Origin: a phage
DNA length: 44,996 nucleotides
Strand: one strand, 5' to 3'
Sequence record: PZ789432.1
A model generated the notes under the pieces. The model saw only the letters and a list, made by a program, of their open reading frames with translations. It ran no database searches and was not told the origin of the DNA. The position numbers were made by a program, and so were the translations under genes. Below, one piece after another: positions 1 to 44,996 of the stretch (position 1 is its first letter; every line of letters begins with the position of its first letter).

Positions 1-257
1 GCCCTCGCCGGGTTGCCCCCATATGGGGTAGATCGGCGGTTGACCTAGGAATTGGGCTGGGCTGGTCCGTCTTCGACGGGTGGGCGAGGGCTTGCCGAGG
101 TCTGCTCTTAGTGGCTGCACAAGGAGAACGCCTAGGAAGCGCTAGGGCACGCCTTAGTATTGGACAAGGTGATTGCCTTAGTGAAGCCTCTTAGTGCATT
201 CCTTAGGTCATTCAGGGCGTTTATGAGGGATTGACAGGGTGGATGCGTGTGTGGGCT
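1..257. repeat. left direct terminal repeat of the linear phage genome
   Basis: 1..257 recurs in the same orientation at 44742..44996. Contains the perfect palindrome CCCCATATGGGG at 17..28. The two copies differ by one substitution and a 2-nt indel at the inner edge (ggatgcgtgtgtgggct vs ggatgggtgtgggct). Confidence 0.85.
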
Positions 258-1258: not shown

Positions 1259-1350
1259 AAGCATCAAGACGGCGACGTCTTTAAACATCCCGCTCTTTAA
1301 CAATATGGTTTGTGTCTTGATAGGCTAACTAACTAACTAAGGTAATTATC

Positions 1351-1461
1351 ATGAAAGGTTTAATTTGTGTAGAACGTATGGTCAATGGTAAACTTGAAAT
1401 ATTACCACTGGAAAACCAATCTAGCTTCAAAGAGTGGTATGGCTGTTTCTCACTGATTTAA
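1351..1461 (+). CDS. hypothetical small early protein (36 aa)
   Basis: ATG 1351 preceded by ctaactaactaAGGtaattatc, the same leader context as ocr; below the ORF-track size cutoff. Confidence 0.3.
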   Translation: MKGLICVERMVNGKLEILPLENQSSFKEWYGCFSLI

Positions 1462-1612
1462 GGTAAAGGCTGGCATTAGTCAGCCTATCAAGGCGCAAAC
1501 CAAGCTCTTTAACAATTTGGATGGTAGCTTCTTAGTCTGGATAGGTTAAACCTAGGGGATTCTCTTGAGTCTCCTATAATGTAACCTAACTAACTAAATG
1601 AGGATTAATAAC

Positions 1613-3436: not shown

Positions 3437-6064
3437 ATGCAAGACCTACACGCTATTCAACTTCAACTTGAAGAAGAAATGTTTAACGGCGGTATCCGTC
3501 GCTTTGAAGCGGACCAACAACGCCAGATTGCATCCGGTAATGAATCAGACACGGCATGGAATCGCCGCTTATTGTCCGAGTTAATCGCGCCAATGGCTGA
3601 AGGTATTCAGGCTTATAAGGAAGAGTACGAAGGCAAGCGCGGTCGTGCACCACGTGCATTGGCTTTCATTAACTGCGTAGAAAATGAAGTGGCAGCGTAT
3701 ATCACGATGAAAATCGTAATGGATATGCTTAACACTGATGTAACCTTGCAGGCTATAGCCATGAATGTAGCTGACCGCATTGAGGACCAAGTACGTTTTA
3801 GCAAGCTGGAAGGTCACGCCGCCAAATACTTTGAGAAAGTTAAGAAGTCACTTAAGGCAAGTAAGACTAAATCATATCGCCATGCGCACAACGTAGCGGT
3901 CGTGGCTGAGAAGTCAGTAGCTGACCGTGACGCTGATTTCTCTCGCTGGGAGGCGTGGCCTAGAGATACCTTGCTACAAATTGGTATGACCTTGCTAGAA
4001 ATACTGGAAAATAGTGTATTCTTCAATGGTCAGCCTGTCTTTCTTCGCACCTTGCGCACTAATGGTGGCAAGCATGGCGTTTACTACTTACAGACTAGCG
4101 AACACGTGGGTGAATGGATAACTGCATTTAAAGAGCACGTAGCTCAGCTGAGTCCAGCCTATGCACCTTGCGTTATTCCTCCGCGTCCGTGGGTTTCTCC
4201 GTTTAATGGTGGCTTTCACACCGAGAAGGTGGCAAGTCGCATCCGTCTAGTAAAAGGTAACCGTGAGCACGTCCGTAAGCTGACTAAAAAGCAAATGCCA
4301 GCGGTTTACAAGGCTGTTAACGCCTTACAAGCTACTAAGTGGCAGGTTAACAAGGAAGTATTGCAGGTAGTAGAAGATGTTATTCGTCTAGACCTCGGTT
4401 ATGGTGTACCTTCCTTTAAGCCGCTCATTGACCGCGAGAACAAACCAGCTAACCCTGTTCCTCTTGAGTTCCAGCACCTGCGAGGCCGTGAACTTAAAGA
4501 GATGCTAACGCCGGAACAATGGCAAGCCTTTATAAACTGGAAAGGAGAATGTACCAAGCTGTATACCGCTGAAACTAAGCGCGGAAGCAAGTCGGCGGCG
4601 ACCGTTCGCATGGTTGGACAAGCCCGTAAATACAGCCAGTTTGACGCAATTTATTTTGTGTATGCACTGGACAGCCGTTCACGCGTTTATGCGCAATCTA
4701 GCACGCTCTCGCCGCAATCAAACGACTTAGGCAAGGCATTGCTCCGTTTTACCGAAGGGCAGCGTCTTGATAGCACTGAGGCGCTTAAGTGGTTTTTGGT
4801 GAACGGGGCGAATAACTGGGGTTGGGATAAGAAAACTTTTGACGTGCGCACCGCTAACGTGCTGGATAGCGAATTTCAAGACATGTGCCGCGACATTGCA
4901 GCGGATCCGCTGACCTTCACTCAATGGGTAAATGCTGATTCCCCTTATGGCTTCCTTGCATGGTGCTTTGAATATGCGCGTTATCTGGATGCACTGGACG
5001 AAGGAACGCAAGACCAATTCATGACGCACCTACCCGTCCATCAAGATGGTAGTTGCTCTGGTATCCAGCACTATAGCGCGATGTTACGAGATGAAGTAGG
5101 TGCGAAAGCAGTAAACCTTAAGCCTTCTGACTCCCCTCAAGATATTTATGGCGCGGTTGCGCAGGTTGTTATCCAGAAGAATTACGCCTACATGAATGCA
5201 GACGACGCAGTGACTTTCACATCCGGAAGCGTCACACTTACAGGTGCAGAACTGCGTAGCATGGCTAGTGCGTGGGATATGATAGGAATCACTCGCGGCC
5301 TGACCAAAAAGCCCGTAATGACACTACCTTATGGCAGCACACGTCTAACCTGCCGTGAGTCAGTGATTGATTATATCGTTGATTTAGAAGAAAAAGAGGC
5401 CCAACGAGCTATTGCGGAAGGGCGTACCGCCAATCCTGTACACCCTTTTGATAATGACCGTAAGGACAGCCTGACACCTAGCGCAGCTTATAACTATATG
5501 ACAGCTTTAATCTGGCCTTCTATTTCGGAAGTGGTTAAAGCTCCTATAGTGGCGATGAAAATGATTCGTCAGCTTGCCCGTTTCGCAGCTAAAAGGAATG
5601 AAGGCTTAGAGTATACCTTGCCTACTGGCTTCATCTTGCAACAAAAGATTATGGCTACTGATATGCTCCGCGTATCCACTTGCCTGATGGGAGAAATCAA
5701 GATGAGTCTCCAGATTGAAACGGACGTAGTGGATGAAACGGCTATGATGGGCGCTGCTGCTCCTAACTTTGTGCATGGTCATGATGCCAGTCACCTTATC
5801 TTAACGGTCTGCGACCTTGTTGATAAAGGGATTACATCTATCGCAGTAATTCATGATTCTTTTGGCACTCATGCAGGTCGCACCGCAGACCTACGTGATA
5901 GTCTAAGGGCAGAAATGGTGAAGATGTATCAAGGCCGTAACGCTCTGCAAAGCCTGTTAGATGAGCATGAAGAACGCTGGTTAGTAGACACCGGAATCCA
6001 AGTGCCAGAGCAAGGAGAGTTTGACCTTAACGAAATCTTAGTATCTGACTATTGCTTCGCATAA
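3437..6064 (+). CDS. single-subunit DNA-dependent RNA polymerase (SP6-type)
   Basis: 875 aa; N-terminus [32 protein letters not shown] and C-terminus ...[12 protein letters not shown]...[10 protein letters not shown] closely match SP6 RNAP as I remember it; T7-family motifs present ([39 protein letters not shown]). Confidence 0.97.
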
Positions 6065-6740: not shown

Positions 6741-8728
6741 TGGCTATTATTAATAACATCCCGTGCCCTGCCTGTCAAAAGAATGGACATGATATTACTG
6801 GCAACCATCTTATGATATTTGAGGATGGCGCTGGTTACTGTAACCGTGGTCACTTCCATGATAATGGTAAGCCTTATTACCATAAGCCAGAGGGTGGTAT
6901 CGAGATAACCGAATTGCCTATTACTGGCAATATCAAATATACACCTTCTCAATTCAAAGAAATGGAGAAGGAAGGGAAGATAAGCGACCCTAAGCTACGC
7001 GCCATCGCACTTGGTGGTATGCGTATGAAAGATCGTTGGGAGGTCATGAATGAGCAAGAAAGGGCAGACCAAGAAGCAGAGTGGAAGCTTGATGTTGAAT
7101 GGTTCCTCACGCTTAAGCGTAAGAACCTTGTATCCCGTCACATTCGAGGTGACATCGCAGCAATGTACGATGTGCGCGTTGGACACGATGAAGAGGGAAG
7201 AGTCAACCGTCACTATTATCCACGATATGAAAAGGGTGTGCTTGTTGGAGCAAAATGCCGGACGTTGCCGAAGGATTTTAAGTTCGGACACCTAGGTAAA
7301 CTCTTTGGTATGCAAGACCTTTTCGGTATGAACACTTTGTCTCACGTGTTAGACAAGGGGAGACGAAAGGATTGCTTGCTTATTGTAGGCGGTGAACTTG
7401 ATGCACTAGCAGCGCAGCAGATGCTCCTTGATTCTGCCAAGGGTACTAAGTGGGAAGGCCAGCCATACCATGTATGGTCTGTCAACAAAGGCGAGTCTTG
7501 TCTTGAAGAGATAGTGCAAAACCGTGAGCATATCGCCCAATTCAAGAAGATTATATGGGGTTTTGATGGAGATGAGGTAGGGCAGAAGCAGAATCAGCAA
7601 GCGGCTCGCCTGTTTCCTGGCAAATCCTATATCCTTGAATACCCCTCTGGTTGCAAAGATGCTAACAAGGCATTGATGGCTGGCAAGGCTAAAGAGTTTG
7701 TAGATGCATGGTTTAATGCCAAGTCATCTGATGAAGTCTTTGGTAGCCAGATTAAATCTATCGCATCTCAAAGGGATAAGCTCAAGGCTGCACGTCCAGA
7801 GCAAGGACTATCATGGCCTTGGCCTAAGCTGAACAAGGTCACGCTAGGTATTCGTAAGAACCAACTTATCATTGTAGGCGCAGGCTCTGGTGTAGGTAAG
7901 ACTGAGTTCCTTCGTGAAGTAGTTAAGCACCTCATTGAAGAACACGGTGAATCTGTAGGCATCATTTCTACAGAAGACCCGATGGTCAAGGTGTCCCGTG
8001 CTTTTATCGGCAAGTGGATTGATAAGCGCATTGAGTTACCGCCAACCAACGACCCGAAAGAAGATGGATACCGTGAGGTGTTCGACTACACCGAGGAAGA
8101 GGCTAACGCCGCCATTGATTATGTAGCTGATACAGGTAAGCTGTTTGTAGCTGACCTAGAGGGTGACTATTCGATGGAAAAGGTAGAGCAAACTTGCCTA
8201 GAGTTTGAGGCTATGGGCATTTCTAATATCATCATTGATAACTTAACGGGGATTAAATTAGATGAGCGTGCTTTTGGTGGGAAGGTTGGTGCACTTGATG
8301 AATGCGTCAAGCGGATTGGTACTATCAAAGACCGACACCCGGTTACTATATTCCTTGTATCACACCTTACACGTCCTCCGGCAAACCGTACCCAACACGA
8401 AGAAGGTGGCGAGGTTATCCTTTCTGACTTCCGAGGCTCAGGCGCTATCGGATTCTGGGCATCTTACGCCTTGGGGATTGAGCGTAATACAAGAGCTGAA
8501 ACGCTTGACGAAAGGACTACCACGTACATCTCATGTGTCAAAGACCGCGACCAAGGAATATTTTCCGGTACTCGTATAATGCTTAAAGGTGATATTGCTA
8601 CTGGTCGATTACGTGAACCAGAGCAAAGATCTCGACCGTTTGATACTGGTGCTCCAAAAGAACAAACTGTACCAGAAGAAGTAGTGGATAAAGGAGGATT
8701 TATTGCTGACGAAGTTGAAGAGTTTTGA
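6740..8728 (+). CDS. DNA primase/helicase (T7 gp4-like)
   Basis: 662 aa; N-terminal zinc ribbon CPACQ...CNRGH; Walker A VGAGSGVGKTEF; acidic C-terminus ending EEF. Confidence 0.93.
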   Translation: MAIINNIPCPACQKNGHDITGNHLMIFEDGAGYCNRGHFHDNGKPYYHKPEGGIEITELPITGNIKYTPSQFKEMEKEGKISDPKLRAIALGGMRMKDRWEVMNEQERADQEAEWKLDVEWFLTLKRKNLVSRHIRGDIAAMYDVRVGHDEEGRVNRHYYPRYEKGVLVGAKCRTLPKDFKFGHLGKLFGMQDLFGMNTLSHVLDKGRRKDCLLIVGGELDALAAQQMLLDSAKGTKWEGQPYHVWSVNKGESCLEEIVQNREHIAQFKKIIWGFDGDEVGQKQNQQAARLFPGKSYILEYPSGCKDANKALMAGKAKEFVDAWFNAKSSDEVFGSQIKSIASQRDKLKAARPEQGLSWPWPKLNKVTLGIRKNQLIIVGAGSGVGKTEFLREVVKHLIEEHGESVGIISTEDPMVKVSRAFIGKWIDKRIELPPTNDPKEDGYREVFDYTEEEANAAIDYVADTGKLFVADLEGDYSMEKVEQTCLEFEAMGISNIIIDNLTGIKLDERAFGGKVGALDECVKRIGTIKDRHPVTIFLVSHLTRPPANRTQHEEGGEVILSDFRGSGAIGFWASYALGIERNTRAETLDERTTTYISCVKDRDQGIFSGTRIMLKGDIATGRLREPEQRSRPFDTGAPKEQTVPEEVVDKGGFIADEVEEF

Positions 8729-9191
8729 GGCAGCAGGATATACCATCAAGGAGGATGGTACTATCCTTAACCCTAAAGGTGTAATACTTAAACCGAGCCA
8801 ATCAGGAAGGAAATTAAAGTATTTATATGTAAGTTGGAGACATCAAGGAAGAAGAGTAACAGAGCTTGTACACAGATTGGTTGCTAAGAAGTACATACCC
8901 AACCCACACAGTTTACCAGAAATTCATCATAAAGACTTTAACCCTCTTAATTGTCATAAAGACAATCTTGAATGGACAGATGGTAAGACTAATTGTGAGT
9001 ATAGTTATGCAAGGGTAGAAGCTGCACTTGCACGTCATGCTACTTTATTGTCACCTGATGGCATTAAGTACGACATATTTAATGTTCGTAAATTCTGCCG
9101 CGAACATGGCCTCAATCCACCTAGTGTATTTGAGGTGCTTAGTGGTAAACGGAAGTCACATAAAGGGTGGACTATTTACCGGACACTATAG
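8703..9191 (+). CDS. HNH homing endonuclease
   Basis: 162 aa; EIHHKDFNPLNCHKDNLEW HNH motif. No in-frame ATG; starts at TTG 8703 six nt after AAGGAGG, inside the last 26 nt of the helicase gene. Confidence 0.8.
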   Translation: MLTKLKSFEAAGYTIKEDGTILNPKGVILKPSQSGRKLKYLYVSWRHQGRRVTELVHRLVAKKYIPNPHSLPEIHHKDFNPLNCHKDNLEWTDGKTNCEYSYARVEAALARHATLLSPDGIKYDIFNVRKFCREHGLNPPSVFEVLSGKRKSHKGWTIYRTL

Positions 9192-10703: not shown

Positions 10704-10908
10704 ATTAAGCAAGGTTTGCTCTTGCGGTAAAGGCTATCGCAGTCGTATTGATGGTAAGTGTGGACATTGTAGGTCTAAGAAAGAGGCTGCTTTGTTTTAC
10801 AAATACCACAATGAACTCTCCTATAACTACCCTCATCTAACACCTAATTCTTTATTAGGACTTGGTTATAGGGCTAAATACTTTGGAGCAATCTATGAAA
10901 TCAATTGA
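10690..10908 (+). CDS. hypothetical zinc-ribbon protein (72 aa)
   Basis: ORF track 10663..10908; ATG 10690 preferred (GAGG 6 nt upstream); CSCGKG...CGHC motif. Confidence 0.5.
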   Translation: MKTIKLSKVCSCGKGYRSRIDGKCGHCRSKKEAALFYKYHNELSYNYPHLTPNSLLGLGYRAKYFGAIYEIN

Positions 10909-11380
10909 TTGGAAGAAGGAAGCGGAAGGGCGCATCCTAGTTATGGACGCCGAGGCGAAAGGTCTACTTGATGCTATACGCTATGGTCATCGTGAAGACG
11001 TGCATATCATCTGCTGTATGGACCTGTTGACTACAGAGGAGTTTCTCTTCTTCGACCCGTATGAGATGCGTGACCCTGAAGCAAGAGAACGCCTGAAGGA
11101 ATGGGAAGGTCATCAAGATGGTGACTTGGTTGATGGTGTTAACTTCCTGAAGCATTGTGAAGCTATTGTGTCACAGAACTTCCTAGGGTATGACGGACTT
11201 CTCTTTGAGAAAGCATTCCCTGATATTTGGAAGGGCTTTAACTATACCGAGAAGCGCGGTAAGGGCAGACTCCGTGCTGACCTGTGTCCGGTGCGAGTCA
11301 TGGATACGCTGGTGATGAGTCGCCTGTTAAACCCAGATAAGACGCCTTCCTCCGCAAGCATATGCCAAAGGTATGGGTAA
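10895..11380 (+). CDS. DNA polymerase (Pol I family), fragment 1 of 4: 3'-5' exonuclease domain; frame-disrupted
   Basis: ORF track 10862..11380 (TTG), first ATG 10895; Exo motifs ILVMDAEAKGL and NFLGYDGLLFEKAF; VMDTLVMSRLL parallels T7 gp5 CIDTLVLSRLI. Homology continues in another frame. Confidence 0.85.
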   Translation: MKSIDWKKEAEGRILVMDAEAKGLLDAIRYGHREDVHIICCMDLLTTEEFLFFDPYEMRDPEARERLKEWEGHQDGDLVDGVNFLKHCEAIVSQNFLGYDGLLFEKAFPDIWKGFNYTEKRGKGRLRADLCPVRVMDTLVMSRLLNPDKTPSSASICQRYG

Positions 11381-11786
11381 CGTCGCCCCTCACTCAATTG
11401 AGGCGCACGGCATCCGTATAGGCCGCTATAAACCGGAGAACGAGGACTGGTCTAAACTAACTGACCACATGGTTCACCGTGTACGTGAGGACGTGGCGAT
11501 TGGTCGTGACTTGTTCCTCTGGCTCTTTAACGGGGAATGGATGGAGCATAAACGCCGTGGCGTGAATAAACGCACGGGCCTAGGCATTGAGACAGCCTTC
11601 CACATGGAGTCCATTGTGGCGCTGGAGATGAGCCGTCAGGCCGAGCGGGGGTTCCGTCTGGACATCGACAAGGCTTTGGCCCGATGCGAAGAATTGGACG
11701 CTAAGATTGATGAGACAGTCGCAGCGTTCCGCCCTCACATGCCTATGCGTATCAAGTCTAAACCTTTTAAACCGGAAGAAAAGTAA
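11373..11786 (+). CDS. DNA polymerase, fragment 2 of 4; frame-disrupted
   Basis: HSIEAHGIRIGRYK parallels T7 gp5 HALEAWGYRLGEMK; the frame is open upstream from 11331, so the shift lies near 11335..11372. Confidence 0.8.
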   Translation: MGNVAPHSIEAHGIRIGRYKPENEDWSKLTDHMVHRVREDVAIGRDLFLWLFNGEWMEHKRRGVNKRTGLGIETAFHMESIVALEMSRQAERGFRLDIDKALARCEELDAKIDETVAAFRPHMPMRIKSKPFKPEEK

Positions 11787-12445
11787 TGAAGTATGCCAAC
11801 GCGCAAATGAGTATGGAGCTAGCAACAATATACCTACTGTCCTTGACCCCTCACACTTTCTTCATGCCGAGAGACGAGGAGATCGCAAGACAGTATGGAG
11901 AGCTTGTCACTACTAAGTCTGGTGATTGGTCGGCTAGTGTTAAGAAAGACTTTCCTCACCTTAGAGGAAACCGTAATGACACGCCAAGCATCAAGTGGAT
12001 TGGCGCTTACTCGCCTGTTACTTTCGAAGAGATTCCCTTGGGTAACAGGGATACAGTTAAGCAAGTGCTCTATGATTATGGATGGAAAGGTGTTGAATTT
12101 AACGATACCGAGCAAGCGCATCTCGATGAGTACGGAGTGTTACCCAAACCTTGGAGTGGTAAGATAAATGAAAAGTCCCTCACTTTATGGCAAGAAAGAG
12201 CCGCACGTGAAGGTAAAACAGTACCTGATTGGTGCTTGGGTATCGCTGCATGGTACATACTCGTATCCCGTCGTGGTCAGATACTCAACCGTGGTGACGT
12301 TGAAGCCTTCAACGAGAAGGGGAACGTGGCCCTCGCAGGCTGGTGTACGAAAGTGTCGCGGCCTTGTACCTGTAGCATTCAACAAGGAGCTAGGAATCAA
12401 TGCGCAGCAATACTACGAGAGGTACGGATGTTGGCCTACGTCTGA
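11786..12445 (+). CDS. DNA polymerase, fragment 3 of 4; frame-disrupted
   Basis: Back in the frame of fragment 1; polymerase-like over its N-terminal two thirds. Confidence 0.7.
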   Translation: MKYANAQMSMELATIYLLSLTPHTFFMPRDEEIARQYGELVTTKSGDWSASVKKDFPHLRGNRNDTPSIKWIGAYSPVTFEEIPLGNRDTVKQVLYDYGWKGVEFNDTEQAHLDEYGVLPKPWSGKINEKSLTLWQERAAREGKTVPDWCLGIAAWYILVSRRGQILNRGDVEAFNEKGNVALAGWCTKVSRPCTCSIQQGARNQCAAILREVRMLAYV

Positions 12446-13448
12446 CAAAGATGACGGAGAGTGGCGTGTTCCAGCTGTTGCTATTAGTATTGGCACTTCT
12501 ACGTTCCGTATGCGTCATCGTAACGTGGTTAATATTCCTGCCCGTGGCTTGTATCCTTTACGTGATTTATTCATAGCAGGGAAAGGCAAGCTAATCCTTG
12601 GTTGTGACGGTGCAGGTCTTGAACTGCGTGTCCTGTCTCACTTCATGAATGACCCTGAGTACCAAGAGATTGTACTGCACGGTGATATTCATACGCATAA
12701 CCAGATGAAGGCTGGTCTTCCTAAGCGTGATATGGCGAAGACGTTTATATACGCCTTCCTCTATGGTTCTGGTATAGCCAACCTTGCAGCAGTCTGCGGT
12801 GTTACTGAGGAAGAAATGAAGGAAGTTGTGGCAAGATTCGAGATTGAACTACCGTCTCTTGCACGTCTTCGTGAGAATGTTATCGCACAAGGTAACAAGT
12901 TTGGCTACCTGCAAGCACCTGATGGGCATTGGGGTCGCATCCGCATGTCTGGTGGTGAACTTAAAGAGCACACGATGCTTAACGTATTACTCCAGATGAC
13001 TGGCTCTTTGTGTATGAAATATGCATTAGTCAAGGCATTTGCAGTAATGCGCAAGGAAGGTGTAGCTTTGGATGCTATGGGAAATCCTTGTGGTGTGGCT
13101 AACGTGCATGATGAAATCCAGATGGAAGTTCCTGAAGAGGAGGTCTTGTATCTTAACTACGACCTACCTTTCACCTTAGATGGGTTCGAAACAGAGAAGG
13201 CTGCTGTGAAAGCAGTTTTCGATGCAGAGGAGAAACGTGTTCATGTGGATTCTGAAGGACGTATGTGGTCTGCTGCAAACCTCGTTAGCGTTGATGCTGA
13301 TGCTGGTGTATTGCATTGCCAGCGCCGTTATCACCGTGCAGGTCATATCATTGCCGACGCCATGACTTGGGCAGGGCAGTATCTGAAGATGCGTTGCCCG
13401 ATGGCAGGAGAATATAAGATTGGCGCAAGCTGGAAGGAAACACACTGA
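12168..13448 (+). CDS. DNA polymerase, fragment 4 of 4: palm/fingers; frame-disrupted
   Basis: Motif A GCDGAGLELRVLSHF, TSTFRMRHRNVVNIP (T7 TGRATHAFPNLAQIP), KTFIYAFLYG, VHDEIQ. Reliable homology starts near 12430; the first ~260 nt of this ORF overlap fragment 3. Confidence 0.85.
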   Translation: MKSPSLYGKKEPHVKVKQYLIGAWVSLHGTYSYPVVVRYSTVVTLKPSTRRGTWPSQAGVRKCRGLVPVAFNKELGINAQQYYERYGCWPTSDKDDGEWRVPAVAISIGTSTFRMRHRNVVNIPARGLYPLRDLFIAGKGKLILGCDGAGLELRVLSHFMNDPEYQEIVLHGDIHTHNQMKAGLPKRDMAKTFIYAFLYGSGIANLAAVCGVTEEEMKEVVARFEIELPSLARLRENVIAQGNKFGYLQAPDGHWGRIRMSGGELKEHTMLNVLLQMTGSLCMKYALVKAFAVMRKEGVALDAMGNPCGVANVHDEIQMEVPEEEVLYLNYDLPFTLDGFETEKAAVKAVFDAEEKRVHVDSEGRMWSAANLVSVDADAGVLHCQRRYHRAGHIIADAMTWAGQYLKMRCPMAGEYKIGASWKETH

Positions 13449-13564
13449 TGGATAGGCTTGACATTATTTGCCTATTCTTCACTCTCTTTCTTACACTCCT
13501 TATGCTTGCTTGTTATGGGAGTATGAGACTAGATATACCTGATGAAGAAGAGGGTTACGACTAA
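13448..13564 (+). CDS. hypothetical small membrane protein (38 aa)
   Basis: ATG overlaps the polymerase stop (TGATG); hydrophobic core. Confidence 0.35.
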   Translation: MDRLDIICLFFTLFLTLLMLACYGSMRLDIPDEEEGYD

Positions 13565-36506: not shown

Positions 36507-36701
36507 ATGATTAACTCCGAACTGGTAGATAGTGGTGTGAAGCTTGCGCCACCTGCACTCGTATCAGGTGGGTACTTCCTCGGTATCAGTTGGGATAATT
36601 GGGTGTTAATAGCAACATTCATTTATACCGTGTTGCAAATTGGGGACTGGTTTTATAATAAGTTCAAGATTTGGAGGGAGAAGCGTGAGCGTACACAATA
36701 A
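36507..36701 (+). CDS. holin (T7 gp17.5-like)
   Basis: 64 aa; SD AAGGAGG; TM segment and WVLIATFIYTVLQIGDWFYNKFKIWREK paralleling T7 gp17.5 AAIAYTVVQIGAKVVDKMIDWKK. Confidence 0.65.
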   Translation: MINSELVDSGVKLAPPALVSGGYFLGISWDNWVLIATFIYTVLQIGDWFYNKFKIWREKRERTQ

Positions 36702-36984: not shown

Positions 36985-38882
36985 TGGCTAAGGCAAGAGA
37001 ATCACAAGCGGAGGCTCTTGCCAGATGGGAGATGCTACAGGAGTTACAGCAGACCTTTCCTTACACAGCGGAAGGTTTGCTTCTCTTTGCAGATACAGTT
37101 ATTCATAACTTAATTGCAGGCAACCCTCATCTGATTCGTATGCAGGCTGATATCTTGAAGTTCCTATTTTACGGACACAAGTACCGCCTCATCGAAGCGC
37201 CTCGTGGTATCGCTAAGACAACACTATCAGCAATCTATACGGTATTCCGTATTATTCATGAACCGCATAAGCGTATCATGGTTGTGTCCCAAAACGCCAA
37301 GCGAGCAGAGGAAATCGCAGGTTGGGTAGTTAAAATCTTCCGTGGCTTAGACTTTCTTGAGTTTATGCTGCCGGATATCTACGCTGGGGACCGTGCATCC
37401 GTTAAGGCGTTTGAGATTCATTACACCCTACGTGGTAGTGATAAGTCTCCTTCTGTATCCTGTTACTCAATCGAAGCAGGTATGCAGGGTGCTCGTGCTG
37501 ATATTATTCTAGCGGATGACGTAGAGTCGATGCAGAATGCTCGTACGGCAGCGGGCCGTGCCTTGCTTGAGGAACTGACTAAGGAGTTTGAATCTATCAA
37601 CCAGTTTGGGGATATCATTTACCTTGGTACACCTCAGAACGTAAACTCTATCTACAACAACCTACCTGCTCGTGGTTACTCTGTTCGTATCTGGACTGCG
37701 CGTTACCCTTCAGTAGAGCAAGAGCAATGTTATGGCGACTTCCTTGCACCTATGATTGTTCAAGATATGAAGGACAACCCAGCACTTCGCTCAGGGTACG
37801 GGTTGGATGGTAATAGTGGTGCACCTTGTGCCCCTGAAATGTATGATGATGAAGTCCTGATTGAGAAGGAAATCTCTCAGGGTGCTGCTAAGTTCCAGCT
37901 TCAGTTCATGCTTAACACTCGCATGATGGATGCTGACAGATACCCATTACGCCTGAACAATCTAATCTTCACCTCGTTTGGTACAGAGGAAGTCCCTGTG
38001 ATGCCTACGTGGAGTAATGATTCCATAAACATCATTGGTGATGCACCTAAGTATGGTAACAAGCCTACGGATTTCATGTACAGACCTGTAGCTCGCCCAT
38101 ACGAATGGGGTGCTGTCTCCCGCAAGATTATGTATATTGACCCTGCGGGTGGCGGTAAGAATGGGGATGAGACGGGTGTGGCTATCGTATTCCTGCACGG
38201 CACATTCATTTACGTGTATCAGTGCTTCGGTGTGCCGGGTGGATACCGCGAATCGTCCCTGAATCGCATTGTGCAGGCCGCAAAGCAGGCGGGTGTTAAA
38301 GAGGTATTCATTGAGAAGAACTTTGGTCATGGCGCGTTTGAGGCGGTAATTAAGCCGTACTTTGAACGAGAGTGGCCTGTAACTCTGGAAGAGGATTACG
38401 CCACCGGACAGAAAGAATTGCGTATCATTGAGACGCTGGAGCCGCTCATGGCAGCCCATAGGCTTATCTTCAATGCAGAAATGGTGAAGTCAGACTTTGA
38501 GTCGGTACAGCACTATCCGCTTGAACTACGCATGTCCTACAGTCTTTTCAATCAAATGTCGAACATAACGATTGAGAAGAACAGCCTCCGGCACGATGAC
38601 CGCCTAGACGCCCTGTATGGCGCTATACGGCAATTAACTTCTCAGATAGACTATGACGAGGTTACACGGATTAATCGCCTCAGAGCGCAGGAGATGCGAG
38701 ATTACATCCATGCTATGAACACACCTCATCTACGCAGGGCAATGCTATATGGGGATTACGGTACTGAGCGAAGAGTGACCAACACTTCCGTAGCGATGCA
38801 GCAGCGAGTTTACGGGCAGAACTACCGAAATAAATCGGCAAGCAGAAATACACTTTCTGCAAGGATTTCAAGGACTTATTAA
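36984..38882 (+). CDS. terminase large subunit
   Basis: 633 aa (ORF track 36981, ATG 36984); position and size as T7 gp19; acidic nuclease-type segments in C-terminal half. Confidence 0.9.
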   Translation: MAKARESQAEALARWEMLQELQQTFPYTAEGLLLFADTVIHNLIAGNPHLIRMQADILKFLFYGHKYRLIEAPRGIAKTTLSAIYTVFRIIHEPHKRIMVVSQNAKRAEEIAGWVVKIFRGLDFLEFMLPDIYAGDRASVKAFEIHYTLRGSDKSPSVSCYSIEAGMQGARADIILADDVESMQNARTAAGRALLEELTKEFESINQFGDIIYLGTPQNVNSIYNNLPARGYSVRIWTARYPSVEQEQCYGDFLAPMIVQDMKDNPALRSGYGLDGNSGAPCAPEMYDDEVLIEKEISQGAAKFQLQFMLNTRMMDADRYPLRLNNLIFTSFGTEEVPVMPTWSNDSINIIGDAPKYGNKPTDFMYRPVARPYEWGAVSRKIMYIDPAGGGKNGDETGVAIVFLHGTFIYVYQCFGVPGGYRESSLNRIVQAAKQAGVKEVFIEKNFGHGAFEAVIKPYFEREWPVTLEEDYATGQKELRIIETLEPLMAAHRLIFNAEMVKSDFESVQHYPLELRMSYSLFNQMSNITIEKNSLRHDDRLDALYGAIRQLTSQIDYDEVTRINRLRAQEMRDYIHAMNTPHLRRAMLYGDYGTERRVTNTSVAMQQRVYGQNYRNKSASRNTLSARISRTY

Positions 38883-38902
38883 TTACTGGACACTATAGAA
38901 GG
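38880..38902 (+). promoter_or_regulatory. phage RNAP promoter (ttaattactggacactatagaagg)
   Basis: Consensus; +1 G at 38897; followed by AT-rich motifs shared with 6226..6270 and hairpin gggtgtac-tcct-gtacaccc. Confidence 0.75.
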
Positions 38903-39037
38903 AAGGCCCAGATAATAAGAGAAAATAATAGGTAATATATAGGTTAACCTAGGTTATATAGGTATGCCTTAGTATGGGTGTACTCCTGTACACCCTATTC
39001 CTTACTACCTTACTATATTTACATAATAGGAGAGACA

Positions 39038-39316
39038 ATGGCTAATGATTATAGTAGTCAACCATTAACAGGTAAGTCTAAGAGAAAGCAGGTACAACCT
39101 GTAAGTGAAGAACTAATGCTTCCGGTAATCAAAAAAGAGGAAGCTAGTAAGAAAAACAATGCTATTAATGATGCCACCAAATCAGGTAAACAGAAAGGGG
39201 CCATGGTGTGCCTTGAAGTGGAAGGTGGTGTATTGAAGATTGCTATCGCGGTTGATGGCAAAGAAGATTCAGAGTGGAAGTTAGTAACAGTGGAACCAGT
39301 TGTTAACCCAGTTTAA
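39038..39316 (+). CDS. hypothetical protein (92 aa), paralog A of a tandem pair
   Basis: ORF track 38978..39316 (GTG); ATG 39038 after AGGAG; shares SGKQKGAMV.LE...L.IA.A motif with the next ORF. Confidence 0.65.
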   Translation: MANDYSSQPLTGKSKRKQVQPVSEELMLPVIKKEEASKKNNAINDATKSGKQKGAMVCLEVEGGVLKIAIAVDGKEDSEWKLVTVEPVVNPV

Positions 39317-39334
39317 GAGAAGGAGGAAGATTAC

Positions 39335-39628
39335 ATGGCTAAATATGGTACTAAAGGTTCTGTTACGGGTCAGGCTTTTCGAGTGAAAGCAGTACAAACT
39401 ATTGCAACGGCAATCCCGATGCCTGTTGTTAAAGAAGTAGACCTTAAGAGTAAAGATCACCCTATCAACATCAAACATTTATCAGGTAAACAGAAAGGTG
39501 CAATGGTTGCTCTTGAGAAAAGTGACACAACCTTACATATTGCTGTTGCACGTGGTAGTGAACCAACAGACCCTTGGGATGTAACTGGCATGGACTCGCT
39601 CGCTGTCACTCCAGCAGGTGGAGAATAA
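39335..39628 (+). CDS. hypothetical protein (97 aa), paralog B of a tandem pair
   Basis: ORF track; SD AAGGAGG; LSGKQKGAMVALEKSDTTLHIAVARG parallels KSGKQKGAMVCLEVEGGVLKIAIAVDG upstream. Confidence 0.7.
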   Translation: MAKYGTKGSVTGQAFRVKAVQTIATAIPMPVVKEVDLKSKDHPINIKHLSGKQKGAMVALEKSDTTLHIAVARGSEPTDPWDVTGMDSLAVTPAGGE

Positions 39629-39985
39629 TGCTTAACAAATACTTCAAGCGCCGTGAGTTCGCTTGCCGTTGTGGGTGCGGTACATCCACTGTTGATGCTG
39701 AATTACTACAGGTAGTCACAGATGTGCGTGAGCACTTTGGTTCGTACCTGTAGTAATCACTTCGGGGCATCGCTGTGCTAAGCACAATGCCAACGTAGGA
39801 GGAGCTAAGAAGGTTCCATGCATCTTACTGGTAAGGCTGCTGACATTAAGGTATCTAGGTGTCTGGTACCAATCGGAGGTACGTACAGTACCTCTGCTAA
39901 TAAATACCCTGATAAGTATGGCATTGGTGCTTATACCTACTTTTACCCATATCGACGTTACGAGACAACGAGTGCACGATGGTAA
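39628..39985 (+). pseudogene. endolysin, zinc peptidase M15-type, with about four frame disruptions in this sequence
   Basis: Successive frames give MLNKYFKRREFACRCGCG...VREHFGS / PVVITSGHRCAKHNANVGGAKK / SMHLTGKAADIKV...GIGAYTY / FTHIDV / ...SARW*, together the M15 hallmark. Each break is at a short G or T run. Confidence 0.75.
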
Positions 39986-40094
39986 GATGTGTTGAATGGT
40001 GTGAACGCATGGTTGCCAAAGCATCCAGAGGATGGCAACTATGATGACTGGAAGAACTACTCTGAATTGTTAGCTCAATGGAAAGGGAGATGCA

Positions 40095-40190
40095 ATGAAA
40101 AAGCTGTTTAAGTCTAAGAAGGTTGTAGGTGCACTGGTTGCACTGGTTATTGCACTTGTTTCTGTAGGTCTTGGCGTAGACCTTGGCTGA
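40095..40190 (+). CDS. hypothetical small membrane protein (31 aa)
   Basis: ATG 40095 after AAGGGAG; MKKLFKSKKVVGALVALVIALVSVGLGVDLG. Confidence 0.35.
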   Translation: MKKLFKSKKVVGALVALVIALVSVGLGVDLG

Positions 40191-40324
40191 AGGTACGGAA
40201 GGTTCCTGTCACTGACGTGGTCTGCCAAGTGATCACCTGTGAATAAGGTGCTTGAAGTGGTGGCAGGTCTTATTGGCCTGCTGCTTGCCGCTAAGAAGAA
40301 GCAAGGAAGAAAAGGAGGCACAAA

Positions 40325-40426
40325 GTGAAGCGAATCATGCTAGCGACAATCCTGCTGATTGGTTCGCTGACCACTTCCGGGTGTCAGACAGGCGTTACCA
40401 GAGAGTCCAATGGTGAAACCGTCTGA
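40325..40426 (+). CDS. small lipoprotein-like ORF (candidate o-spanin-like)
   Basis: GTG 40325 six nt after AGGAGG (or ATG 40337); MLATILLIGSLTTSGCQTG has a signal peptide with lipobox-like TSGC. No intact i-spanin ORF is visible. Confidence 0.35.
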   Translation: MKRIMLATILLIGSLTTSGCQTGVTRESNGETV

Positions 40427-40564
40427 AGCCGACGCTGACGGCAGTTTACGAGGTAGACGATAAGGTCTGCTTCAGTAAGCCTGACGCTACAAAATTAGGT
40501 TTGTATATTCTTTCGCTAGAACGCGGATATAATTAATACATAGCTTTATGTATCAGTGTCTTAC

Positions 40565-40588
40565 GATTTACTGGACACTATAGAAGAG
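40565..40588 (+). promoter_or_regulatory. phage RNAP promoter upstream of the tailspike genes (gatttactggacactatagaagagg)
   Basis: Exact consensus; +1 G at 40583. Confidence 0.8.
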
Positions 40589-40667
40589 GTAAGATAGCGC
40601 CGTTCTTTTGAGCGGCCTATTACTAGCCAATCTTCATAGGGAGGGTTGGAAAGTAATAGGAGATAGC

Positions 40668-41792
40668 ATGGCTAAATTAACCAAACCTAAGACTGAAGGA
40701 ATCTTGCATAAAGGACAATCTTTGTATGAGTACCTTGATGCGAGAGTTTTAACATCAAAGCCGTTTGGTGCTGCAGGTGACGCCACTACTGATGATACGG
40801 AGGTTATAGCTGCTTCACTAAACTCTCAAAAAGCTGTCACAGTCTCAGATGGTGTATTCTCTAGCTCTGGTATTAATAGTAATTACTGTAACTTAGACGG
40901 CAGGGGTAGTGGAGTACTAAGTCACCGTTCAAGTACAGGTAACTACTTAGTATTTAACAATCTACGTGCAGGTCGCTTAAGTAATATTACGGTAGAAAGT
41001 AATAAGGCGACTGATACAACTCGGGGACAGCAGGTATCTCTTGCTGGTGGAAGTGATGTTACTGTAAGTGACGTTAACTTCTCAAACGTTAAAGGTACTG
41101 GTTTCAGTTTAATAGCATACCCTAATGGTGCGCCACCTAATGGGCTTATGATTAAAGGTATTCGAGGTAGCTACTCCGGCTATGCTACTAATAAGGCAGC
41201 CGGATGCGTACTTGCTGACTCCTCAGTTAACTCCCTAATAGATAACGTCATTGCTAAGAACTACCCTCAGTTCGGAGCCGTAGAGTTGAAAGGTACAGCC
41301 AGTTATAACATAGTCAGTAATGTTATAGGGACAGATTGCCAGCATGTAACTTACAACGGCACTGAAGGGCCAATAGCTCCTTCTAATAACCTTATCAAGG
41401 GTGTGATGGCTAATAACCCTAAGTATGCAGCGGTTGTTGCAGGCAAAGGAAGTACGAACTTAATCTCAGACGTGCTCGTAGATTACTCAACTTCTGATGC
41501 TAGGCAGGCTCATGGTGTTACCGTAGAGGGGTCTGATACCGTCATAAATAATGTGCTTATGTCAGGATGTGATGGTACTAACTCTTTAGGACAAAGTCAG
41601 ACTGCTACAATTGCGCGCTTTATAGGTACAGCTAATAACAACTATGCGTCTGTATTTCCTAGCTACAGTGCTACAGGTGTTATTACTTTCGAATCCGGCT
41701 CTACCCGTAACTTCGTAGAGGTAAAGCACCCTGGCAGGAGAAATGACCTTCTCAGTTCTGCTAGTACTATTGACAGGTGCAGCTACTATTGA
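40668..41792 (+). CDS. tailspike 1 (beta-helix polysaccharide depolymerase, K5-lyase-like), N-terminal fragment; frame-disrupted
   Basis: ORF track 40608..41792 (TTG); ATG 40668 after AGGAG; beta-helix-like repeats; frame lost near 41775. Confidence 0.8.
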   Translation: MAKLTKPKTEGILHKGQSLYEYLDARVLTSKPFGAAGDATTDDTEVIAASLNSQKAVTVSDGVFSSSGINSNYCNLDGRGSGVLSHRSSTGNYLVFNNLRAGRLSNITVESNKATDTTRGQQVSLAGGSDVTVSDVNFSNVKGTGFSLIAYPNGAPPNGLMIKGIRGSYSGYATNKAAGCVLADSSVNSLIDNVIAKNYPQFGAVELKGTASYNIVSNVIGTDCQHVTYNGTEGPIAPSNNLIKGVMANNPKYAAVVAGKGSTNLISDVLVDYSTSDARQAHGVTVEGSDTVINNVLMSGCDGTNSLGQSQTATIARFIGTANNNYASVFPSYSATGVITFESGSTRNFVEVKHPGRRNDLLSSASTIDRCSYY

Positions 41793-42652: not shown

Positions 42653-44365
42653 ATGCTTCAAAGATTAAGTGCTTACTTGGTGAAGTACAAGAGTAAACTA
42701 ACAGGTACTATTGAGCGCCTGCTATCTGATAAACTATCGGATACAATAGACGTTGCGGATTTTGGAGTTAATCCCTCTTCTAATGACAACAGGCAAGCCC
42801 TTCAAGCTGCATTCAATGCGGTCAGATTGCTAGGCGGTGGTACTGTATCAGTCACTAAAGCTGGCGAATATAAACTCAGTGGTACTGTTGAGATATTTGC
42901 TAATACACACTTCAAGGTTGCTAAAGGTGTAACATTTGTACGTGACTACGAAACAGGAGATACGCTATTCAGATTATCACAAGGGCAAGCTAGTAATGTA
43001 ACAGTCAGTGGAGGTATCTATGAAGGCAATGGTCACACTAAGGGAGATACACCTTTTGTAGTATTTGCATCTACTAGTAATAATGATTTGAAGTTTGAAG
43101 GCATAACAGTTAACAATGTAGTGGACTACCACGCCATAGATTTAGCAGATTGGAACAACGTAGTTATTCGTGATTGTAAATTCCTAGGGTTTAAGAATAC
43201 AGGCAGTCGTAACTTCTCAGAGGCTATACAGTTAGACCCAGGTCTTATTACAGTTGGTCACTATGTACAGTCAAGCGGTATGCTGGTGGAGAATTGCTAT
43301 GCTGGTCCAAACCCAGAATCAGGGTTTGGGGGTTATGGTGCACTAATCGGAAATCACGCCTCAGCTTATGGTGTACAGGACAACAATATCCGTATCTTGA
43401 ATTGCACTACAGATGGTGCTCTCTTTGCAGGTGTACGTGTATTTAACTGGAAAAACTGGACAGTACGTGGTTGTACCTTTAGAAACTCTAATGCAAGAGG
43501 TGTTCATGTTACACCTGTCTCCTCTCAAACTAAACCGCAAGGAACTCGACAAGGTAGTGTTGTAGATTGTACTTTTGATGGCGTAAGAACACCAGTGCTA
43601 ATTGCTGCACCATCTTGGCCTTTTACAGATATTAGTGACATTTGGCATGACCATATTGAAATTTCTAATAATACTATGATCCTCACAGAGGATGTATCCT
43701 ATGGTGTAGATGCAAGGTGGTGTAAGAATTTAATTGTAAAAGGTAACACTGGTTCTGGCGGCTTAGGGTTAATCGGTTTACGCTTTGGAACAAAGTACCA
43801 CATCGAAGGTAATACTTGGGAAAACGGAAGAGGTAGTGGGATTTGGTTAGGTGAGTCTGATGCTACTACATTCATTGGTACTGGCTTATCTGGAGAAGGT
43901 ATACTTAGTCGTAATATCCTCTCTAAATTAGGGCAATATGGTATTCATGTAAACTGCAAGGCTGGCGGTCTAGTGATTAAAGCTAATAATATGAAGGAAG
44001 TATCTACAGCTGAAGCAGGTAGGCACTTCATTAGCATAGACACAGGAGCTAACAACATCCTAGTAGAAGGTAATATTGGAGTAGATGGAGAAAGCCCTAA
44101 CAAGCCAAGCTTGGGTATTCGTGTTACTTCTTCTTGTTCCAATATTAAACTCATTGGCAATGATTGCTATGGTACACAGGCGCCTCAGAATAACCAAGGG
44201 GTTGGTTCTAGTACGGTGATTGTTTATGGACTAAATGGCAATCCTACAACTTTAGGCGTAGGTGCACCTGTTGGCTCTTTAGCAACTGATATCAATGGGT
44301 CTGGTGGTAGTACATTGTACGTTAAAGAATCTGGTACATCTGCTCAAGGTTGGGTTGCAAAGTAG
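42653..44365 (+). CDS. tailspike 2 (pectate-lyase-fold beta-helix depolymerase)
   Basis: 570 aa; SD AAGGAGG; N-terminal DVADFGVNPSSNDNRQALQAAFNA...GGGTV typical of pectate-lyase-type tailspikes, followed by beta-helix-like repeats. Confidence 0.85.
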   Translation: MLQRLSAYLVKYKSKLTGTIERLLSDKLSDTIDVADFGVNPSSNDNRQALQAAFNAVRLLGGGTVSVTKAGEYKLSGTVEIFANTHFKVAKGVTFVRDYETGDTLFRLSQGQASNVTVSGGIYEGNGHTKGDTPFVVFASTSNNDLKFEGITVNNVVDYHAIDLADWNNVVIRDCKFLGFKNTGSRNFSEAIQLDPGLITVGHYVQSSGMLVENCYAGPNPESGFGGYGALIGNHASAYGVQDNNIRILNCTTDGALFAGVRVFNWKNWTVRGCTFRNSNARGVHVTPVSSQTKPQGTRQGSVVDCTFDGVRTPVLIAAPSWPFTDISDIWHDHIEISNNTMILTEDVSYGVDARWCKNLIVKGNTGSGGLGLIGLRFGTKYHIEGNTWENGRGSGIWLGESDATTFIGTGLSGEGILSRNILSKLGQYGIHVNCKAGGLVIKANNMKEVSTAEAGRHFISIDTGANNILVEGNIGVDGESPNKPSLGIRVTSSCSNIKLIGNDCYGTQAPQNNQGVGSSTVIVYGLNGNPTTLGVGAPVGSLATDINGSGGSTLYVKESGTSAQGWVAK

Positions 44366-44741: not shown

Positions 44742-44996
44742 GCCCTCGCCGGGTTGCCCCCATATGGGGTAGATCGGCGGTTGACCTAGGAATTGGGCTG
44801 GGCTGGTCCGTCTTCGACGGGTGGGCGAGGGCTTGCCGAGGTCTGCTCTTAGTGGCTGCACAAGGAGAACGCCTAGGAAGCGCTAGGGCACGCCTTAGTA
44901 TTGGACAAGGTGATTGCCTTAGTGAAGCCTCTTAGTGCATTCCTTAGGTCATTCAGGGCGTTTATGAGGGATTGACAGGGTGGATGGGTGTGGGCT
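44742..44996. repeat. right direct terminal repeat
   Basis: Same orientation copy of 1..257; preceded by extra ctcgccctcgccctcgcc units that the truncated left copy does not show. Confidence 0.85.

Follow-up and report, generated by a model that had tools for sequence, protein, structure and literature searches.

The window, by which is meant the whole stretch of 44,996 nucleotides analysed here (record PZ789432.1), very probably carries at positions 39628-40536 a standard late lysis cassette of the K1-5/SP6 type, in which 19 extra bases most likely arose through faulty sequencing or assembly and not through mutation. The original prediction held that no intact spanin pair is visible in this genome, and this is confirmed for the sequence as read: a scan of the whole window on both strands gave no other credible candidate, and the plus strand between 39754 and 40607 contains no intact open reading frame (ORF) of more than 40 aa. 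Two explanations had been offered for this situation. The idea of a frame-damaged spanin region proved right, as the tiny ORFs seen there are the N-terminal stumps of a gp44-like membrane protein and of an o-spanin, whose full-length genes are found in relatives. On the other hand, the idea of a non-canonical outer-membrane disruption system falls away, for removal of the 19 bases private to the window restores a standard cassette of the K1-5/SP6 type. It had been overlooked that the endolysin gene is broken as well and that essential genes elsewhere in the genome are damaged in the same way.

Genome context and transcription

Megablast searches with positions 39300-40700 and 20500-44996 against a phage collection place the window among the K1-5/SP6-like phages, in Vectrevirus (Autographiviridae, Molineuxvirinae). 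The closest genomes, those of VEc3, vB_Eco_Sem2/3, KMB47 and K1-5, are about 97% identical over most of the length, and with the first three of these the identity outside the damaged patch is 96-97%. Positions 1..251 recur as a direct terminal repeat at 44742..44992, with 250 of the 251 bases identical, and this 251-bp repeat implies that the window is a complete, terminally redundant linear virion genome and thus packaged, viable phage DNA. The single base at which the copies differ may itself be an error.

A consensus scan of the window for the promoter of the K1-5/SP6-type phage RNA polymerase, ATTTACTGGACACTATAGAAGAG, returned seven matches with zero to three mismatches, all on the plus strand (9174, 13731, 14500, 15646, 24005, 38881 and 40566), where none would be expected by chance. 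The match at 38881..38903 (three mismatches) lies upstream of two small paralogous genes and the lysis cassette, while that at 40566..40588 (no mismatch) starts the tailspike transcription unit and marks the downstream end of the cassette. Given that these two promoters stand before and after it, the lysis cassette belongs to a late transcription unit. The two paralogues (39038..39316 and 39335..39628) are arranged in tandem just upstream of the endolysin gene, are about 36% identical to each other and encode proteins of 92-96 aa, which are named 'acetyl-CoA acetyltransferase' in the RefSeq records of relatives, a label that looks like annotation carry-over.

Differences from the relatives are also seen at some distance from the cassette. 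A 162-aa ORF (8703..9191) that follows the primase/helicase gene shares 38-40% identity with two HNH endonucleases of VEc3, both of whose sites (VEc3 6396 and 36367) are empty in the window, and it looks like a mobile homing endonuclease at another insertion point. The second tailspike (42653..44365, 570 aa) is dissimilar in sequence to its counterpart in VEc3; this stretch is not covered by K1-5, whose second spike is an endosialidase, and is covered by vB_Eco_Sem2/3 and by Klebsiella phage Sem4. It is, to judge from its sequence, a cassette exchange of the receptor-binding enzyme.

Layout of the lysis genes

In T7-like phages the holin gene normally lies between the tail fibre gene and the small terminase gene (TerS), with the spanin genes apart from it. 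The holin that had been claimed beside TerS is present as an intact 64-aa ORF on the plus strand (36507..36701), located between the tail fibre/adaptor gene and TerS. It belongs to the T7 gp17.5 type (class II) and does not differ from the VEc3 holin (100% identity); with PF10746, whose cut-off is 25.4 bits, it scores 95.5 bits (E=1.5e-27), and phrog_920 'holin' is matched as well (E=5.8e-28). The description of the lysis genes as dispersed is therefore correct as regards their layout, but not as regards its being an oddity, since K1-5, VEc3 and LL11 are arranged alike; a scattered layout that is normal in T7-like phages and identical in K1-5 and VEc3 is not an anomaly.

Downstream of the large terminase gene (TerL) and the two small paralogous genes, the relatives carry a conserved chain which consists of an endolysin (114 aa), a protein of 43-47 aa, gp44 (48-49 aa), a protein here called ORF-X (61-73 aa) and a lipoprotein (gp45 in K1-5; 66-71 aa) whose gene starts inside ORF-X. 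These ORFs are intact in all 24 close relatives (K1-5, LL11, VEc3 and 21 IMG/VR contigs) and in the five distant relatives examined, namely Proteus Pm5460, Klebsiella K61PH164C1, Edwardsiella WCT72P1, ECBP5 and Salicola CGphi29. The last of these is the loosest fit: its gp44 counterpart is a different membrane protein of 62 aa, and neither an endolysin gene nor a 43-47-aa ORF was identified in the stretch examined around its o-spanin.

The locus is the already catalogued lysis cassette of K1-5 and SP6. When compared with genes 43-45 of K1-5, PK1Ep58/59 of K1E and gp46-48 of SP6, the window has the same genes, order and overlaps, with 90-100% identity once repaired, and in each case the genes follow TerL and two small paralogues and precede a phage promoter and the tailspikes; the frame damage is found in the window only. 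Annotation of these genes differs among records, as SP6 annotates ORF-X (gp48) and omits the lipoprotein, whereas in K1-5, VEc3 and LL11 the lipoprotein is annotated and ORF-X is missing. In the LL11 record gp44 is labelled i-spanin and the lipoprotein o-spanin, the equivalent of the latter in K1-5 being the lipoprotein gp45.

Inserted bases in the cassette

Changes private to the window were defined by an alignment of positions 39300-40700 with the 24 close relatives (25 sequences). They include 19 inserted bases in 13 events, all of them within 39742-40421 and present in none of the 24 relatives. Thirteen of these bases fall in the endolysin part (39742-43, 39812-13, 39866-69, 39888-89, 39935, 39958 and 39970) and the others in the downstream genes (40023, 40187, 40207, 40302, 40390 and 40421). 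The same alignment shows no private deletion in the cassette and 11 private substitutions, none of which creates a stop codon. Homopolymer-length errors of the 454, Ion Torrent or nanopore type were considered and rejected, because the insertions do not extend homopolymers but add one or two bases in mixed context.

Deletion of exactly these 19 bases restores five overlapping ORFs simultaneously and at the lengths of their families, and the repaired products lie within family variation. Thirteen events in 680 bp stand against a rate of some 0.2 per kb in the rest of the genome, which corresponds to an approximately 100-fold enrichment (Poisson P ~1e-21). We infer that this concentration may reflect a patch of low coverage, perhaps as lysis genes clone badly or are toxic.

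The endolysin gene (39628..39985, plus strand) encodes, once repaired, a Peptidase_M15_3 zinc peptidase of 114 aa. As read, tblastn with the VEc3 endolysin finds it distributed over three frames (39628-39744 in frame 1, 39747-39959 in frame 3 and 39809-39982 in frame 2), and its zinc-ligand motif FTHIDVRD, which is out of frame in this state, returns in frame and at full length after repair. The K1-5 orthologue matches PF08291 (E=6.7e-34, 116.7 bits), a domain that is absent from the window as read at full length in one frame. The endolysin gene is followed by a small conserved gene (39979..40111, plus strand; phrog_1312), which encodes 43 aa once the one extra base at 40023 is removed and overlaps both the endolysin stop and the gp44 start. 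Searches of Pfam and NCBIfam gave no match for this 43-aa protein, gp44, ORF-X or the o-spanin.

The 31-aa transmembrane ORF of the original prediction is present in the ORF listing (40095..40190, plus strand; MKKLFKSKKVVGALVALVIALVSVGLGVDLG), with a lysine-rich N-terminus followed by a hydrophobic segment. It is what remains of a gene for a gp44-like single-pass membrane protein (40095..40246, plus strand) that is cut by extra bases at 40187 and 40207. The repaired product (49 aa; phrog_4712, E=2.8e-27) is 100% identical to a gene product in four phage records. It has five lysines among its first nine residues, followed by an uncharged transmembrane segment of 19 residues that is conserved in all relatives (hydropathy over 19 residues of 2.76 in the window and 2.3-2.8 overall) and by an acidic C-terminus of about 21 residues with a CxxxxC motif, and by the positive-inside rule its topology would be N-in/C-out.

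ORF-X (40239..40463, plus strand; 73 aa once repaired; phrog_9219, E=4.6e-32) corresponds to gp48 of SP6. Its start overlaps the gp44 stop (GTGAATAA); it runs out of frame into the o-spanin gene and is reduced to a 29-aa stump (40239..40328) in the sequence as read, with extra bases at 40302, 40390 and 40421. Its repaired product is 95% identical to its best match, and its counterparts lie at 4923..5144 of the K1-5 locus (L001) and, as gp48, at 1343..1561 of the SP6 locus (L032). The o-spanin gene starts at ORF-X codon 29 in another frame, an arrangement which is kept in 29 of 29 relatives.

The lipobox-containing ORF that had been proposed next to these is likewise present (40325..40426, plus strand), with 33 aa from a GTG start (MKRIMLATILLIGSLTTSGC...) or 29 aa when read from the ATG at 40337 (MKRIMLATILLIGSLTTSGCQTGVTRESNGETV). 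It represents the beginning of the gene for an Rz1-like outer-membrane lipoprotein, the o-spanin (40325..40536, plus strand; 69 aa once repaired): as read, the frame stops at 40426 after 33 codons and homology resumes in another frame at 40423-40533, the break being caused by the extra bases at 40390 and 40421. Its signal peptide MKRIMLATILLIGSLTTSG is followed by the lipobox cysteine (40325..40384), Cys20 being predicted to be lipid-modified, and the repaired mature part CQTALPESPMVKPLKPTLTAVYEVDDKVCFSKPDATKLGLYILSLERGYN has Gln and not Asp at position +2, six prolines in 50 residues and no transmembrane segment. The repaired protein is 95.7% identical to that of Citrobacter phage CrRp3 and 95.5% identical to K1E gp45, homologues are found in 158 phage records, and the K1-5 orthologue matches phrog_8971 'Rz-like spanin' (E=1.7e-38).

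It could be supposed that the lipoprotein alone acts as a unimolecular spanin, as T1 gp11 does, or that a cationic disruptin-like peptide breaches the outer membrane, and the unusual shortness of both candidate inner-membrane partners might be taken to speak for such a view. Nevertheless, the C-terminus of the lipoprotein (...KLGLYILSLERGYN) has only eight consecutive hydrophobic residues and no C-terminal transmembrane segment, and the repaired translations of ORF-X and of the gp44 ectodomain are acidic and not cationic; both readings are thus rejected on sequence features and can be given hardly any credence.

A second lipobox ORF in a lysis context was not found in the whole window on either strand, the one at 40325 being alone credible, nor was an alternative endolysin or spanin found elsewhere in the window. 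A 38-aa ORF at 13448 with a lipobox-like LMLAC was rejected as a spanin, as it lies among early genes and adjoins the polymerase gene. This ORF (13448..13564, MDRLDIICLFFTLFLTLLMLAC...) comes next after the DNA polymerase gene, and its product, which shares 100% identity with VEc3 gp17, could be a lipoprotein or a small membrane protein that belongs to the block of replication genes.

Sequence error or loss of function

Frame breaks outside the cassette were located with tblastn, in which each VEc3 protein served as query and the window as target. The DNA polymerase gene (10862..13448) is divided into five frame segments, with breaks near 11340, 11784, 11901 and 12320, and one break each was found in the exonuclease (about 17004), the scaffold (23711), the tail fibre/adaptor (35645) and the K5-lyase tailspike (41775). 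On both sides of each of these breaks amino-acid identity is 96-100%, and the breaks consist of extra bases that are absent from VEc3 and, wherever it aligns, from T145P2. Across the genome there are about 22 frame-breaking events, all of which are insertions, and errors of this type appear to affect the record as a whole.

Were the frameshifts real, the endolysin, gp44, ORF-X and o-spanin would all be pseudogenes and lysis would have to proceed by another route, such as the holin alone together with a virion-borne lytic transglycosylase, or a non-canonical outer-membrane disruptor. In favour of this view it may be said that damage is about 100-fold denser in the lysis cassette and ends in its flanks, and that no near-identical genome showing an error-free sequence was found in the phage collection, where the best match is about 97%, so that there is no second copy of the genome to contradict it. 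However, the polymerase would then also be in five pieces and the scaffold, adaptor and tailspike genes would be broken, a state that cannot be reconciled with a virion genome that is complete and terminally redundant. Besides, all 13 cassette events are insertions, without any deletion or stop-creating substitution, which is unlike pseudogene decay, the repaired proteins are up to 100% identical to those of relatives, and the window holds no replacement endolysin, spanin or lipobox gene elsewhere. Real frameshifts are accordingly regarded as very improbable.

Sequence error is the preferred reading for two reasons. A packaged phage could not survive with its polymerase, exonuclease, scaffold, adaptor and tailspike broken, which makes error the most likely source of the damage. 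In addition, the presence of insertions only, with no deletion or stop-creating substitution in the cassette and few private substitutions, points to a process that adds bases and not to the decay of pseudogenes.

Relation to known spanin systems

Work on the spanins of this group is represented in the literature searches by a single catalogue, no experimental work on SP6/K1-5 spanins having turned up beside it. In this catalogue K1-5, K1E and SP6 are listed as having their own small i-spanin and o-spanin families (Kongari 2018, PMC6139136). Its supplement treats gp44 and gp45 as a 'separated' pair, in which the i-spanin gp44, with about 20 periplasmic residues, is marked 'Too small?' and the pair, with a total of 71 periplasmic residues, is flagged 'Too short'. 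For UAB_Phi78, by contrast, the pair is described as 'overlapped', and the 69-aa i-spanin used there is an ORF-X homologue (Kongari 2018, PMC6139136).

The window resembles T7 (17.5 holin, 18.5/18.7 Rz/Rz1 and 3.5 amidase) in that a T7-family holin gene (PF10746) lies directly upstream of the small terminase gene, the late region has its lysis genes at separate places and the o-spanin gene is overlapped by a gene read in another frame. In T7 the Rz1 gene is embedded in the 143-aa Rz gene, between the two terminase genes. Unlike in T7, the cassette of the window lies after TerL, the endolysin is an M15 peptidase and not the 3.5 amidase, the candidate partners measure only 49 and 73 aa, and neither Pfam nor PHROG gave a cross-match that would link the cassette to T7 Rz or Rz1, to which its sequences show no similarity.

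With lambda Rz/Rz1 and P2 LysB/LysC the cassette shares an outer-membrane lipoprotein with a proline-rich mature part and a periplasmic cysteine. As in the overlapped architecture of P2, the lipoprotein gene overlaps an upstream gene out of frame, whose product has a hydrophobic helix followed by a charged region. It differs from lambda and P2 in its far shorter periplasmic total (71 residues with gp44 or about 105 with ORF-X), in the lack of a predicted coiled coil in the AlphaFold model of ORF-X and in the lack of homology.

The inner-membrane partner of the o-spanin

The partner of the lipoprotein in the inner membrane is either gp44 or ORF-X. On the features of its translation, gp44 is the only protein with a convincing predicted N-in/C-out anchor, yet its ectodomain is minimal: after the transmembrane segment there are only about 21 residues, and they do not form a substantial charged helical periplasmic domain. 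In phrog_4712 and in RefSeq it is labelled 'holin'.

ORF-X, for its part, is a real and conserved coding gene, as follows from its pattern of variation. In the 77 nt that belong to ORF-X only, between gp44 and the o-spanin start, variability by codon position is 0.121/0.019/0.242 among 21 distinct relatives. In the part that encodes the o-spanin signal peptide it is the ORF-X frame that sets the periodicity, and o-spanin third-position variability is 0.052 there as against 0.185 where the o-spanin is encoded alone. Furthermore, the ORF-X motif SDNPADWFADHFRV is nearly invariant. A large protein search returned 50 clusters of ORF-X homologues, all of 56-73 aa and from SP6-like contigs, and no bridge from ORF-X to any full-length Rz family.

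Out-of-frame gene overlap is a hallmark of Rz/Rz1 pairs. It is conceivable that the true pair of SP6-like phages is an overlapped one of Rz/Rz1 type, in which ORF-X is the i-spanin and the lipoprotein the o-spanin, while gp44 would be a holin, antiholin or regulator, as its RefSeq label suggests. Such a pair is compatible with the coding constraint on ORF-X, both in its own 77 nt and across the o-spanin signal peptide, with the typical out-of-frame overlap, which is always kept as far as Salicola phage CGphi29, with the highly charged domain that follows the hydrophobic segment, and with the use of the UAB_Phi78 homologue as an overlapped i-spanin in the catalogue. Nonetheless, the hydrophobic N-terminal stretch of ORF-X is weak: a 19-residue hydropathy of 1.46 was obtained for the window and of 0.8-1.4 for distant homologues, its longest uncharged run is 6-13 residues, and it stays below the usual transmembrane threshold, the lambda Rz and T7 gp18.5 controls for hydropathy being indicative only. 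Four lysines directly after this stretch speak against export of the C-terminus. The AlphaFold monomer, which is of low confidence (pLDDT 62), has helices at residues 3-29 and 38-45 and a disordered tail (residues 51-68, pLDDT <50), and no long periplasmic coiled coil is predicted in it. Lastly, the uniformly small size of the homologues and their lack of a link to any full-length Rz family tell against a function as i-spanin. An ORF-X/lipoprotein pair is therefore possible, if rather doubtful. Slightly favoured is the arrangement in which gp44 serves as the anchor and ORF-X as an extra conserved component.

Implications

From what is known of the protein families involved, lysis would proceed in the usual succession of steps. 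The T7-type holin (36507..36701) would permeabilise the inner membrane, after which the M15 zinc peptidase, which is cytoplasmic and lacks a signal sequence, could reach and cut the murein. The o-spanin, lipid-anchored in the outer membrane, and its inner-membrane partner would then fuse or disrupt the two membranes.

The record needs correction: its frame breaks affect at least 10 genes, and any automatic annotation of it will overlook the endolysin and the spanin. The apparent loss of spanins in this phage is a problem of sequence quality and matters very little for its biology. With regard to the SP6/K1-5 clade as a whole, it is tentatively proposed, with confidence that falls only somewhat short of balanced, that the outer-membrane step is carried out by an ultra-compact module of gp44, ORF-X and the lipoprotein, in which ORF-X would be an overlapped i-spanin or a third partner. 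If ORF-X were indeed a functional component of lysis, this would account for the 'too short' appearance of the curated gp44/gp45 pair in relation to the periplasm that it has to span. The coding constraint on ORF-X across the clade, a gene which the records treat inconsistently, is in this sense a side result of modest value.
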